Assembly: GCA_002296225.1 (NCBI GenBank)
Contig: DBHR01000080.1
Location: forward strand, 13,362 to 77,361
Length of the DNA: 64,000 bases
From: Acidobacteria bacterium UBA823
Lineage (GTDB): Bacteria; Acidobacteriota; Vicinamibacteria; Vicinamibacterales; UBA823
Direction: 5' to 3'
Part shown: in pieces, positions 21,618 to 28,744 of the stretch
Numbering within the stretch: position 1 is the first letter of the stretch
Layout of the letters: the number at the start of each line of letters is the position of its first letter
Notes under the pieces: model-generated
What the model was told of the DNA's origin: nothing
Databases searched by the model: none
What the model saw: only the letters and a program-made list of their open reading frames with translations
Made by a program: the position numbers and the translations under genes

Positions 21618-21711
21618 CAACCTCGCAAATTTCTAACCGGATTATCTGCGCTGTAAGCGCTGCTTACGCTGCCGACCTGTCGGTGTGCCAAGCCCAGTCG
21701 AGTTGAAGCGC

Positions 21712-22452
21712 ATGTCTGAGGCCAAACATACCGTGCAGCTTTTCGCCACCTGTCTGGTCGACGTAATCCGGCCGATGGCCGGCCTGGCTACGCTCCAAGT
21801 GCTTGAGCGGCTTGGCGTGACGGTCACGGTGCCGACCGGTCAGACCTGTTGTGGCCAGCCGGCGTTCAATACCGGATGTCTGGATGATGCACGTGCGATG
21901 GCGCGCTATACCATCGATCTGTTGGAACGATCGCCGGTTCCGATCGTCGTACCTTCCGGGTCATGTGGCGACATGATCGTGCACCGCTATCGCGAACTAC
22001 TTGCTGACGATCCGGCCTATGCTCCGAAGGCCGAACGCGTGGCAGCGCGGACATACGAGCTCAGCCAGTATCTTGTGGAGGTGCTGAAAGTTGAGGATGT
22101 CGGTGCACAATGCCGGCGAACGATTGCCTACCATCCGTCGTGCCATCTGCTGCGTGGTCTTGGTGTTCGTGCGGCGCCAGCCCGCCTGCTCGAGGGCATT
22201 TCCGGCGCGTGCTGTGTGCCGCTGTCGGGAGCCGAAGACTGCTGCGGGTTCGGCGGCGCATTTGCGGTGAAGATGGGGGAGCTCTCAAGCGCCATCCTCA
22301 GTCGCAAGCTCGACGCGATCGTGAAATCCGGGGCCGACACCGTCGTCGCGTGCGACGCCGGCTGTTTATTGCACATTGAGGGAGGACTGCGGCGTCGTGG
22401 CTCGTCCGTGGAAGTCCGACACCTCGCCGAGGTCTTGGCAGAATCCGAATGA
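21712..22452 (+). CDS. lutA: L-lactate utilisation protein LutA ((Fe-S)-binding, CCG-domain)
   Basis: VQLFATCLVD start region and two Cys-rich CCG-type motifs (TGQTCCGQP; EDCCGFGG). I prefer the ATG at 21712 to the GTG at 21685. Confidence 0.85.
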   Translation: MSEAKHTVQLFATCLVDVIRPMAGLATLQVLERLGVTVTVPTGQTCCGQPAFNTGCLDDARAMARYTIDLLERSPVPIVVPSGSCGDMIVHRYRELLADDPAYAPKAERVAARTYELSQYLVEVLKVEDVGAQCRRTIAYHPSCHLLRGLGVRAAPARLLEGISGACCVPLSGAEDCCGFGGAFAVKMGELSSAILSRKLDAIVKSGADTVVACDAGCLLHIEGGLRRRGSSVEVRHLAEVLAESE

Positions 22453-23858
22453 ATTCCCAACCGATGTCATTCCATCGGCGGATTTCGCACGCGTTGGCAG
22501 ACGGCGCACTCCGCGTTGCGCTCGACCGGACAACTGAGCGGTTTACGTTGAAGCGCGCCGCTGGCTTGGCGTCACTGCCAGACTCCGACGAGGTTCGCGA
22601 CCGTGCGCGGGCGATCCGTCTGCACACGCTGTCTAGACTCGACGAGTATTTGGAGCAGTTCGACGCAGCTGTCACGTTGGTGGGTGGCCGGGTGCACTGG
22701 GCCGCCGACGGACAAGAAGCGAACGCGATCGTTCTCGATCTCGCCAGGTCGCACTCGGTCGAACGCATTGTCAAATCGAAGTCGATGGTGAGCGAGGAGG
22801 TCCATCTCAACCACACGTTGCTCGCGGCTGGCCTCGACGTCGTTGAATCAGACCTCGGCGAATACATCATCCAGCTTGCGGGCGAAACGCCGTCCCACAT
22901 CATCGCGCCGGCGGTGCACAAAACACGTGAGCAGATTGGACAACTGCTAGCGGACAAGCTAGGCGTGCCGGTAACAGACGACCCTGCTGAGATGACGGCG
23001 ACCGCCAGAGCCGCCCTGCGAGATGTGTTCTTGCGGGCCGAGATGGGAGTGAGTGGCGTCAACTTCGGGGTCGCATCGACCGGTTCACTGGCGATCGTCA
23101 CGAACGAGGGCAACGCGTCGCTCGCTGTTACCGCGCCTCGCATCCATGTGGCGATGATGGGGATCGAACGCCTCGTCCCAACGCTTGACGACCTCACGGT
23201 GATGCTGCAGATTCTCGCACGGTCGGCGACCGGACAAAAGCTGACGGTCTACACAGATCTACTCACGGGACCGCGCCGCGGAGATCTCGATGGCCCGGAA
23301 GAACTGCATGTTGTTCTAATCGACAACGGTCGAAGCCACCTTGTCGGAACTGAGGTCGGTGAAATCCTTGCGTGCATTCGATGTGGGGCTTGCTTGAACG
23401 CGTGTCCGGTCTATCAACAGGTTGGCGGGCACGCTTACGGCAGCGTGTATTCGGGACCGATCGGTGCTGTCCTCACGCCGAGCCTCGATCGCGGAGGCCC
23501 ATGGCATTCCTTGCCTGACGCTAGTTCGTTGTGCGGTGCCTGCCGTGAGGTGTGCCCGGTTCGGATCGATATTCCGCGGATGCTACTGGCGCTCCGCGCG
23601 CGGGCTGTTCACTCCGGCAAGACCGGTCGCTGGGTTCGGATTGCGTTCCGGTTGTATCGCATGGCGGCCACGCGTCCTTGGCTGTTCAGGCGTACCGTGT
23701 CGGTCGGACGTTGGCTGATGGAGTTGTTTGCCGTCGATGGCTGGCTGCACCGGCTCCCCCCGCCGCTGTCAGGCTGGACGCTATCCAGAGAGTTTCCGGT
23801 GATCGCCGGCCGTACTTTTAGCGAGCGGATGCGGGATAGGCTTGAGGCCAGCGGATGA
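22449..23858 (+). CDS. lutB: L-lactate utilisation protein LutB (4Fe-4S ferredoxin-type)
   Basis: CIRCGACLNACPVY and CGACREVCPVRI cluster motifs. LUD-type N-terminal region. Start overlaps the lutA stop (ATGA). Confidence 0.85.
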   Translation: MNSQPMSFHRRISHALADGALRVALDRTTERFTLKRAAGLASLPDSDEVRDRARAIRLHTLSRLDEYLEQFDAAVTLVGGRVHWAADGQEANAIVLDLARSHSVERIVKSKSMVSEEVHLNHTLLAAGLDVVESDLGEYIIQLAGETPSHIIAPAVHKTREQIGQLLADKLGVPVTDDPAEMTATARAALRDVFLRAEMGVSGVNFGVASTGSLAIVTNEGNASLAVTAPRIHVAMMGIERLVPTLDDLTVMLQILARSATGQKLTVYTDLLTGPRRGDLDGPEELHVVLIDNGRSHLVGTEVGEILACIRCGACLNACPVYQQVGGHAYGSVYSGPIGAVLTPSLDRGGPWHSLPDASSLCGACREVCPVRIDIPRMLLALRARAVHSGKTGRWVRIAFRLYRMAATRPWLFRRTVSVGRWLMELFAVDGWLHRLPPPLSGWTLSREFPVIAGRTFSERMRDRLEASG

Positions 23859-27211: not shown

Positions 27212-28744
27212 CTAGGGTGTGTCGCTGTTGCTACCCCCGACCGTCTCGATCGACCAATTCTGCCTAATCATCGTCAGATACGCCTTTTGACTAAACAGTG
27301 ATTCCGTTACCGGATGGCGCGCGATGCCGTCACGCCAGACTTCCAACGCCGCTCCGTCGTCACCCGCACGGAAGTAAAGCCAGCCACGCAGGTAGTGCGC
27401 CTCGCCAGCATCGACGTGATCCGGATAACGTGCTAGGAAGGCATCAAGCACTTCTTGCGCTACCGCCGAGTCGCCGCGCTCGAAGGCGATCCGCGCGTGC
27501 TCGATATCGGTGGCAGGCCCCGCCGGCGCTGACTCAAGCGCAGCCACAGCGTCAGTCCATCGCTCCTGCAGGCGTAGTGCGCGGGCCCGTGCCAGCGCCG
27601 TGCGTGCTGGAAGTCCAGAAGTGGCATCCAGGATCTCTAGCGCCTGGTCCGCTGCCCCCTCATCGAGTAGGAGCTCCGCGCGCTGGAGTCGGGACGACGA
27701 GTCAGTTGCGACCTTGAGACGCGCCAACTCCGGCCACTCGTGATCGAGGTGGAAATGCCTGCCCAAAAACTTGATCATCTCCTGCTGAAGAAACCAAGGG
27801 TCGAGGACGTGCGTGTTCTCTGCCGCTACCGGCCCGTCGTGTCCATCGCTCCATCCGTAGGTGATGCTTTCGACTTCTGGACCGCCTGGAATCTCAGGGG
27901 TTTCAAGAATGAAATATGCATCTTCGTGGCCCGGGGGCATGTTGTAGCGGACGCCAGAGCCGTCGAGGTTGTTCAGGTGCACCGGCACGAAGTAGCGATT
28001 GATTAGTGTAGCCACGACCGGATCTGAGAACGGACCCGTTCTCATGAAGAGGCCGCCTTCTCAAGTACCGGCGGTCGGAAAGAGCATGAGTGGCTTTCGC
28101 GAACGGGTCGCCTCTTGGCGCGCGGTCGCTTCGTCAGACCGCCACTCCACGCCGCCGGTGGCCCAGTACAGGTCGAGTGCTTCTAGGCCGTCATACCGAT
28201 CGGTGAGGACGACGTCTTCGAAGGCGTCGGTACCACCGAGGTCGCCGATGGTCGCCTCGCCGTCAGCATCGATCCGAAACCGCAACCGGCCTTTGGCGCG
28301 GTAGTCGACGACTGACCAGTCGCTAACAAACGGGCGGCGCGCTAGGGTTTGGCCCAACGGTTCCTCGGCGCAGAAGAAACAGACACCCGCGTTCATCTGG
28401 AAGATCGTGTGGGCACCGATCGCCACGCCGTCGCGCTCGAGGTGGGCTCCCGGCGCGTGCTCGGCGAGCACAGCTGCTACGTCACGCACACTAACCTCGG
28501 CGCCTGGGGTGACCTTGACACTCAGTTCGTTTCCGTCGAATGAGGCAGCCGCTATTCCTGGCATCTGTTCGATAGCCGCTAGAACATGGTCATCGAGTGG
28601 CGCGCCGGTAATTAGCAGCTCGATGGCTGGGCCCGGAATCGCACTCAGGGAACCCGCTAGTAGTGTTGCGAAGAGAAAATTCAACATGATGCCGCGGATC
28701 GTACCGTCCACCATCAGACGTGTCAACGTGAGGCTCGTTAGCAA
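27212..28744 (-). CDS. Candidate selenoprotein: signal/HMA-like x2 (CFFC)/thioredoxin-like (in-frame TGA)/TPR protein; alternatively a Cys->stop pseudogene
   Basis: Track ORFs 28061..28744 and 27212..28045 are in one frame, interrupted only by TGA at 28063..28061. The junction ...KPLMLFPTAGT-TGA-EGGLFMRTGPFSDPVVATLINRYFVPVHLN is a thioredoxin-fold active-site region with the TGA at the first CxxC Cys. The real start may be the ATG at 28687 (MLNFLFATLLAGSLSA). Confidence 0.5.
28025..28044 (-). promoter_or_regulatory. SECIS-like mRNA hairpin (8-bp stem, GGUC loop) downstream of the in-frame UGA
   Basis: mRNA 5'-U GAGAACG GGUC CGUUCUC A-3', a perfect inverted repeat seen directly. It starts 16 nt after the UGA. 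The loop sequence matches, from memory, the apical loop of the E. coli fdhF SECIS. Confidence 0.4.

Follow-up and report, generated by a model that had tools for sequence, protein, structure and literature searches.

A conserved in-frame TGA followed by a SECIS-like hairpin points to a selenoprotein family of marine Acidobacteria

A TGA codon inside one reading frame

The 64,000-nucleotide stretch of contig DBHR01000080.1 of Acidobacteria bacterium UBA823 that was analyzed here (the window) carries on its minus strand two open reading frames (ORFs), 28061..28744(-) and 27212..28045(-), which lie in one common frame and are separated only by the TGA at 28063..28061 and five sense codons. This arrangement raises the question of whether the locus contains two genes, a damaged gene, or a single gene in which the TGA is read as selenocysteine (Sec). 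An initial annotation, made from the sequence of the window alone, had described the same geometry, and it was borne out when the coordinates were re-derived. The five codons directly 3' of the TGA are GAA GGC GGC CTC TTC, the next ORF opens with ATG, and the junction read across the stop is ...KPLMLFPTAGT-[TGA]-EGGLFMRTGPFSDPVVATLINRYFVPVHLNN. Based on comparative sequence analysis, these two adjacent "hypothetical" genes are almost certainly one gene with an internal TGA for Sec, and recoding of the UGA within a single 491-residue selenoprotein is considered very probable. The features on which this reading is based are as follows.

27212..28687, minus strand: predicted selenoprotein gene, 491 codons plus a TAG stop; start ATG 28687, alternative ATG 28714
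28061..28063, minus strand: in-frame TGA predicted to be read as Sec, residue 209; invariant in 31 loci, in the column of the first Cys of CxxC
28046..28060, minus strand: five-codon spacer E-G-G-L-F; fixed at 15 nt, with synonymous third-position changes only and no in-frame start codon
28025..28044, minus strand: hairpin U-GAGAACG-GGUC-CGUUCUC-A, a candidate bacterial selenocysteine insertion sequence (SECIS); conserved core 28043..28026, loop 28036..28033

Databases carry the gene as two ORFs, an N-terminal one of approximately 210 aa and a C-terminal one of 277 aa. The start at ATG 28687 (MLNFLF...) was set by an aligned Met in orthologues that have in-frame stops just upstream. These stops point away from the TTG at 28744, with which the initial annotation had begun the upstream ORF; TTG 28744 is probably not the true start, which would be ATG 28687 or possibly ATG 28714. 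Reassignment of the genetic code was ruled out because TGA ends most other genes in the window, namely 21 of the 38 other ORFs of at least 200 aa and six of the ten neighbouring genes with Pfam matches.

Conservation of the TGA in related loci

The TGA was compared across 31 related loci, corresponding to 27 distinct junction sequences with protein identities down to approximately 35%, which were obtained from metagenome-assembled genomes (MAGs) labelled Vicinamibacterales, Marinacidobacterales and Acidobacteria and from marine metagenomes. Orthologues had been expected to align either Cys or TGA at this column, and TGA was found there in all 31 loci. The first protein search yielded two C-terminal fragments. 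On the contigs that encode them, the in-frame TGA and the upstream coding sequence are both present as in the window gene. A scan with one genome per species identified full-length copies in nine MAGs (labelled Acidobacteria, Vicinamibacterales and Marinacidobacterales, plus Woeseiaceae for two bins), all with TGA at the column and with 49-81% identity over the queried thioredoxin-like and tetratricopeptide repeat (TPR) region. Pairwise full-length protein identity to the window gene ranges from 46 to 78% in a set of ten sequences and falls to 33% for C-terminal fragments; the divergent members L024-L027 keep the TGA, too. Finally, a DNA-pattern scan of metagenomes that allowed TGA, TGC or TGT at the column yielded 15 true family members, all with TGA, while the eight remaining matches (six TGY, two TGA) lie in unrelated sequence context. 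On this evidence, the family is small, marine, essentially acidobacterial and always of the Sec type.

Two observations on the quality of these collections were made. The gene and its flanks are nearly identical in L007 and L009, from MAGs labelled Woeseiaceae (Gammaproteobacteria), and in L008, labelled Acidobacteria, which points to a conflict of binning or of taxonomic label in one or more of these MAGs. The N-terminal fragments P0073 and P0083 and the C-terminal fragment P0029 switch abruptly to unrelated sequence part-way, which looks like the result of assembly-error frameshifts rather than real variants.

The sequence between the two ORFs evolves as coding sequence

The spacer that follows the TGA is 15 nt long in all 27 distinct sequences, contains no insertions or deletions and always encodes EGGLF. 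Its variation is confined to codon position 3 and is always synonymous; the five variable columns are exactly the five third positions, an arrangement with a chance of 1/3003. The spacer has no in-frame start codon. A sequence that is fixed in length, varies only synonymously and lacks a start is therefore translated, by reading through the TGA. Both flanks and the spacer evolve as coding sequence in one frame, with a purifying pattern and saturated synonymous sites, in agreement with the earlier statement that coding sequence is intact on either side of the TGA. Translation of the spacer rules out a pseudogene and strongly disfavours a pair of independent genes.

A hairpin under selection at the SECIS position

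A perfect hairpin, UGAGAACG-GGUC-CGUUCUCA, occupies 28044..28025 and starts 16 nt after the UGA, so the 8-bp stem and GGUC loop reported initially stand. The folding energy is -9.9 kcal/mol for the 8-bp stem and -8.3 kcal/mol for its 7-bp core. The loop at 28036..28033 lies 27-30 nt after the U of the UGA (the 25-28 nt given before was slightly off), with 24 nt between UGA and loop. A published model of bacterial SECIS elements specifies a loop of 3-9 nt, a stem of 4-16 bp, a G in the first two loop positions followed by G or U, a spacing of 16-37 nt and a minimum free energy of at most -7.5 kcal/mol (PMC13188914). The GGUC loop, the stem of 7-8 bp, the 24-nt spacing and both folding energies all fall within these limits.

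Conservation at synonymous sites sets the hairpin apart from the remainder of the gene. Across ten full-length orthologues, 126 columns combine an unchanging amino acid with codon degeneracy, and a single codon is kept in only seven of these. Five of the seven are the consecutive hairpin codons AGA ACG GGT CCG TTC, at +7 to +11 after the TGA (R-T-G-P-F), while identity at fourfold degenerate third positions outside the hairpin is 0.26-0.46. The 18-nt core is invariant in 26 of the 27 distinct sequences, and the sole change, AGA to AGG in L024/L025, replaces an A-U pair with a G-U pair and preserves pairing. The hairpin is thus retained in TGA-bearing orthologues, as had been predicted, and these data support the conclusion that it is under selection as an RNA element at the SECIS position. 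The peptide R-T-G-P-F is nearly invariant in the family, whereas Cys-containing DUF255 homologues have an E-R-E-S-F-like sequence there, which is the pattern expected when a coding-region SECIS dictates the peptide.

The hairpin alone would be only mildly unusual: perfect 8-bp hairpins number 17 per strand in the window versus approximately 9.5 in shuffled sequences, and the chance of finding one in the SECIS zone of a given TGA is approximately 0.6%. It is the conservation across species that places it far beyond chance. The fdhF SECIS of E. coli has an identical apical loop, GGUC, in which the residues G23 and U24 contact SelB. Both elements are stem-loops within coding sequence just 3' of a UGA. 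They differ in that the loop here is approximately 5-6 nt further from the UGA, the stem lacks the bulged U and its sequence is unrelated to that of fdhF; binding of SelB to the hairpin studied here is a prediction.

Domains of the predicted protein

In addition to the elements around the TGA, the following parts of the protein were delimited.

28640..28687, minus strand: short hydrophobic leader MLNFLFATLLAGSLSA, a probable signal peptide; conserved hydrophobic N-terminus
28439..28627, minus strand: HMA-like domain 1, ferredoxin-like beta-alpha-beta-beta-alpha-beta fold without Cys; AlphaFold pLDDT >95
28205..28408, minus strand: HMA-like domain 2 with an invariant CxxC; AlphaFold, Foldseek and conservation in 38 sequences
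27758..28171, minus strand: thioredoxin-like domain of DUF255/Thioredoxin_7 type, F-P-T-A-G-T-U-E-G-G; approximate boundaries from profile searches
27257..27733, minus strand: C-terminal TPR domain of approximately 4-5 repeats; Pfam above cut-offs and AlphaFold

The placement of the TGA within a thioredoxin fold was examined with profile searches. When all PDB sequences were searched with a profile of the region, the only matches were 3ira_A (E 0.0025), 3f9u_A and 7tkv_A, all thioredoxin folds of the DUF255/Thioredoxin_7 type, and in all three chains the TGA column falls on the first Cys of CxxC. The initial annotation had assigned the TGA to this same position of a Thioredoxin_7/DUF255-type fold, and the PDB profile and the hhalign alignments agree with it; the hhalign probability of 98% against DUF255 domains is inflated, as the comparison set was picked through the shared word INRYFVPV. 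In models of the separate halves, alpha0 and an unpaired beta1 belong to the N-terminal half and alpha1, beta3, beta4 and alpha3 to the C-terminal half. The latter shows a helix, two strands and two more helices, consistent with the rest of a thioredoxin fold, followed by the TPR superhelix. In the profile alignment to the PDB chains, the break point coincides with the catalytic residue, between beta1 and alpha1. Known members of this group (DUF255/Thioredox_DsbH/Thioredoxin_7; 3ira, 7tkv and 3f9u; YyaL/SPATA20-type) share with the window gene the pattern V-x-W...KP-hhh...[C/U]-x-x-x-x-x-M...F-x-D/N...INRYFVPV, and the first Cys of their C-H-W-C aligns with the U column. In contrast to them, the predicted protein has Gly instead of the second Cys (U-E-G-G), lacks the C-terminal six-hairpin glycosidase-like domain and is flanked by HMA-like and TPR domains.

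The N-terminal part was modelled by AlphaFold as a 217-residue fragment, which gave two beta-alpha-beta-beta-alpha-beta domains with pLDDT >95 over most of residues 30-175. C103 (28381..28379) and C106 (28372..28370) form the CxxC at the beta1-alpha1 junction of domain 2, the place of metal binding in HMA domains, and the A, G, C and C of this motif are invariant in 38 sequences. Pfam HMA (PF00403) scored 12.5 bits against a cut-off of 24.8 (E 0.2). The best single-domain Foldseek matches to the fragment were Ccc2a (1fvq), 4a48_B and rice HMA domains, with probabilities of 0.98-1.0, TM scores of 0.6-0.7 and E-values of at least 0.065, and they may concern domain 1 or domain 2. The predicted fold and the position of the CxxC in domain 2 resemble those of HMA domains such as Ccc2a, Atx1/CopZ and MerP. 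Unlike these, the motif is AG-x-C-F-x-C versus GMxCxxC, domain 1 has no Cys and the sequence match is non-significant; metal binding is predicted.

At the C-terminus, TPR_14 (31.8 bits, cut-off 23.5) and TPR_6 (30 bits, cut-off 26.3) exceed their Pfam cut-offs. AlphaFold modelled this part as an all-helical repeat with pLDDT 86-97, and the Foldseek and PDB profile matches are TPR proteins. TPR matches dominated the Foldseek search of the C-terminal half, which returned nothing on the thioredoxin-like part. A thioredoxin fold with an incomplete CxxC followed by TPRs is also found, by analogy, in the E. coli YbbN/CnoX chaperedoxins. CnoX differs in that it is cytoplasmic and has neither Sec nor HMA-like domains, and no sequence or profile match to CnoX/YbbN was obtained in the PDB searches.

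The hydrophobic N-terminus is present in 36 of 36 intact N-terminal fragments, a basic n-region is absent in most orthologues, and AlphaFold places a low-confidence helix before the first folded domain. The leader is a probable signal peptide, atypical for its lack of a basic n-region, and export of the protein appears likely. The window encodes a TonB-dependent receptor, which indicates an outer membrane and hence a periplasm. The suggestion of export made initially is thus plausible, but the accompanying view that this would be unusual for a bacterial selenoprotein does not hold, as exported ones are catalogued in a 2026 review that lists DsbA-, DsbG- and TlpA-like, TonB-dependent receptor and substrate-binding selenoproteins (PMC13188914).

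Membership in NF041383 (VPGUxxT thioredoxin-like (seleno)protein type 2, OS_HP5) was considered and rejected, as the protein scored 25.6 bits versus a cut-off of 275. A weak local match covers residues 177-240 (E 8.4e-6). Both are thioredoxin-like, with Sec (predicted for the window gene) in place of the first Cys of CxxC and a residue other than Cys in place of the second, but the window gene has TAGT-U-EGG instead of VPG-U-xx-T and differs in length and architecture.

A distantly related sister family

A second leader-bearing thioredoxin-like ORF with an in-frame TGA (G-H-T-U-N-N-G) was found at L014:208-1527, on a MAG contig labelled Planctomycetia (CAZSFH010000106.1). The two families are distantly related and their TGA codons occupy equivalent structural positions. 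In L014 the hairpin CCAGGC-AGUAU-GCCUGG starts 16 nt after the TGA, and another member of the Sec type, L052 (C-V-U-N-N-G), has the hairpin CCAGGC-GGUCG-GUCUGG downstream of its TGA. Among 48 relatives in the databases, 45 begin only beyond the TGA position. A single full-length member is of the Cys form (P0088/L051, T-C-S-N-G), and the hairpin is missing from it. The sister family thus reproduces the pattern expected of Sec/Cys exchange, with the hairpin accompanying TGA only, on the strength of this one Cys-form sequence; the family of the window gene offers no Cys form for comparison. A further sequence, L053:1501-2715 (Logan contig of ERR14373513), has TGG (Trp) at the column (A-C-V-W-N-N-G) and keeps the hairpin CCAGAC-GGUCG-GUCUGG; the Trp codon may have arisen by recent mutation from TGA, reflect an error of assembly or be a genuine variant. 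Judged by sequence, the sister family is probably another uncatalogued selenoprotein family.

Approximately 1.5 kb downstream of the TGA gene in L014 lies a radical SAM-like ORF (L014:3040-4059) with an N-terminal C-N-L-E-C-V-H-C and a Cys-rich C-terminus, CFGCTAGAGSSCGGS. By appearance it recalls 'Radical SAM domain protein TIGR04167', which is among the selenoprotein families of the 2026 review.

Alternatives to selenocysteine insertion

If translation ended at the TGA, the locus would hold two real genes. The second chain would start by translational coupling at the ATG/GTG 16 nt downstream, with the Shine-Dalgarno-like GA(A/G)GG as its ribosome-binding site, and the two chains would act apart or reassemble a split thioredoxin fold. 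This is the call made by every gene caller, since all gene calls examined open the second ORF at the ATG/GTG, and 81 of 81 database homologues are fragments. In all family loci, moreover, the ATG/GTG lies six codons 3' of the TGA with the purine-rich GA(A/G)GG before it (window 28043-28060, minus strand). Sec insertion is usually inefficient, so a truncated N-terminal by-product probably exists, and reinitiation at the ATG/GTG may take place under selenium limitation. On the other hand, a pair of genes does not account for a spacer without a start codon that is nevertheless free of indels and synonymous-only in 27 distinct sequences, nor does an untranslated spacer need a hairpin frozen at synonymous sites. 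The break would also fall exactly on the catalytic residue of the fold, between beta1 and alpha1, and in homologues the column of the M/V taken as a start is occupied by the conserved Met of CxxCxxM. Two separate genes are hence judged highly improbable.

The UGA could also be read through without Sec, with a near-cognate tRNA inserting Trp, Cys or Arg and the hairpin acting as a generic stimulator. No genes of the Sec machinery were detected in the window or in the regions flanking related loci, and the TGG in L053 of the sister family, next to a retained hairpin, would fit insertion of Trp. However, the position is that of the nucleophilic Cys of a thioredoxin fold, where Trp or Arg would abolish the chemistry; Cys could be obtained without any recoding from a plain TGC or TGT, yet neither is used in any of the 31 loci. 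The hairpin geometry and the GGUC loop fit the SelB-type SECIS model, and we know of no established bacterial mechanism for hairpin-stimulated stop-codon read-through. Such a decoding is given very little chance. A pseudogene or sequencing error that changed TGC or TGT to TGA, the simplest reading of a lone in-frame stop in a single sequence and one the initial annotation had argued against, is refuted by the comparative data and practically nil in likelihood, as the same TGA occurs in 31 loci assembled independently from different studies and lineages and purifying selection acts on both flanks, where synonymous divergence is saturated.

Observations that weigh against a selenoprotein

Several results count against decoding of the TGA as Sec. 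The first concerns the family itself, in which no Cys-form orthologue was found in three collections (a word-indexed protein search, an exhaustive HMMER search and the metagenome DNA pattern). The word-indexed search with a thioredoxin-domain profile yielded 81 proteins, all of them fragments of approximately 200 or 270 aa that are either N-terminal pieces ending in ...FPTAGT or C-terminal pieces starting with (M/V)RTGPF. The HMMER search of the N-terminal piece against 1.84 billion cluster representatives gave eight matches, none longer than 205 residues, and six of them align up to the last residue of the query before the TGA. The absence of a Cys form is atypical of selenoprotein families and leaves this one without the usual confirmation by Sec/Cys exchange.

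Genes for Sec insertion were likewise not encountered near the locus. Neither the 64-kb window nor the flanks of related loci yielded selA, selB, selC or selD. ARAGORN detected no tRNA in the window and no tRNA-Sec in the flanks of ten related loci, and tblastn with E. coli SelD and SelA gave no match in the window and 23 related loci. Neither a scan of the window for other coding ORFs split by a TGA nor one of related loci for TGA codons in redox motifs returned more than ordinary gene ends or noise, so there is no second selenoprotein nearby to prove the trait. At the phylum level there is precedent, as selenoproteins have been documented in Acidobacteria (PMC1794560).

With respect to the RNA, the hairpin displays invariance without compensatory covariation, and Rfam searches at gathering and permissive thresholds matched no relevant family. 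When the 71-nt region was folded alone, a longer helix was preferred in which the UGA-proximal UGAGAAGG pairs with UUCUCA, and the z-score of this isolated region is a modest -1.84. The sequence GAGAAGG immediately after the U of the UGA partly duplicates the 5' arm of the hairpin, GAGAACG (window 28025-28063, minus strand), and this duplication allows the isolated RNA to form a competing extended helix that buries the UGA. The competing helix has an energy of -17.8 kcal/mol in the window gene and up to -21.6 kcal/mol in L001, and its 5' strand varies at synonymous sites. Such a fold may hide the hairpin or the UGA until the ribosome arrives.

The assignment of the thioredoxin domain, lastly, is based on weak profile E-values and on Pfam scores below threshold. 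Thioredoxin-fold families, among them PF03190 and PF13899, were used for this comparison; Thioredox_DsbH scored 22.6 bits (cut-off 27, E 1.1e-4) and Thioredoxin_7 15 bits (cut-off 27, E 0.028).

Proposed decoding and function

In the proposed mechanism, UGA 28063..28061 would be decoded as Sec during translation instead of serving as a stop. Its anatomy and conservation suggest that the GGUC-loop hairpin acts as a bacterial SECIS that brings SelB-GTP and Sec-tRNA(Sec) to a ribosome halted on the UGA. A ribosome in this position would cover the 5' strand of the competing helix, and the apical hairpin would become free to form.

In the resulting protein Sec209 would replace the nucleophilic first Cys of CxxC, giving T-U-E-G-G without a resolving Cys in the motif. 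Sec209 could make the nucleophilic attack in a protein that carries out redox chemistry or handles soft metals outside the cytoplasm, as C103, C106 and U209 are the only Cys or Sec residues of the whole protein; a role as redox nucleophile, predicted from sequence, is about evenly balanced between true and false. The CxxC of the HMA-like domain might provide a resolving or relay dithiol or act as a co-ligand for Cu(I) or Hg(II), and the TPR domain might dock a partner. A specific partnership between CxxC and Sec is a tentative and rather doubtful proposal. More specifically, the protein might be an obligately selenium-dependent exported enzyme in which Sec209 and the HMA-like CxxC form an interdomain Cys2-Sec site for Cu(I)/Hg(II) or a selenenylsulfide relay while the TPR arm holds a client, although this full picture is unlikely to be correct. 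If the interdomain Cys2-Sec site were real, this family and the sister family would represent an unrecognised group of leader-bearing U-x-x-G thioredoxin-like selenoproteins in marine bacteria. Invariant residues surround the site, among them a His, an Asn, an Arg-Tyr pair and the stretch Pro-Gly-x-Glu-x-Ala-Tyr, and they hint that the protein has a specific catalytic pocket and is not a general disulfide exchanger.

Relation to catalogued selenoproteins

No model of NCBIfam release 20 reaches its cut-off for gene 27212..28687(-), and Table 1 of the 2026 review, which covers 119 prokaryotic selenoprotein families, contains no entry with a matching domain or motif (PMC13188914). The gene apparently belongs to an uncatalogued selenoprotein family of marine Acidobacteria. 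A thioredoxin fold with Sec in its CxxC and a SECIS downstream is the commonest, textbook kind of selenoprotein; the family extends this known kind of protein and introduces no new principle. Its distinctive traits are the complete lack of Cys forms, the U-x-x-G motif, the unusual HMA-like/thioredoxin/TPR architecture and an exceptionally frozen SECIS.

Reading the TGA as Sec would repair the annotation of a gene of which every database copy found is split into two proteins that are unnamed or named 'hypothetical' or 'TPR repeat', and would add a family to the prokaryotic selenoproteome. It would also imply selenium use by abundant marine Acidobacteria. The lack of a Cys form suggests that Cys cannot substitute for Sec in this protein, which makes it a useful case for studying why Sec is employed instead of Cys. 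Frozen over 18 nt at synonymous sites, the hairpin would provide a clean natural example of a SECIS outside the usual model phyla, and one in which the element dictates the peptide (R-T-G-P-F versus E-R-E-S-F in Cys homologues).

Gene neighbourhood

The set of neighbouring genes, which includes LutA/LutB, a GFO oxidoreductase, an FGGY kinase, an M23 peptidase and DUF1015, varies from lineage to lineage. The neighbourhood in the window and related loci provided no functional clue, and the linkage of the Lut genes to the predicted selenoprotein gene is not conserved in other lineages. In the window, LutA-like (CCG domain) and LutB-like (LUD plus 4Fe-4S) lactate-utilisation genes are located at 21685-23858 (+), a few kb from the predicted selenoprotein gene, with the GFO/IDH/MocA oxidoreductase and the FGGY sugar kinase between them and it.

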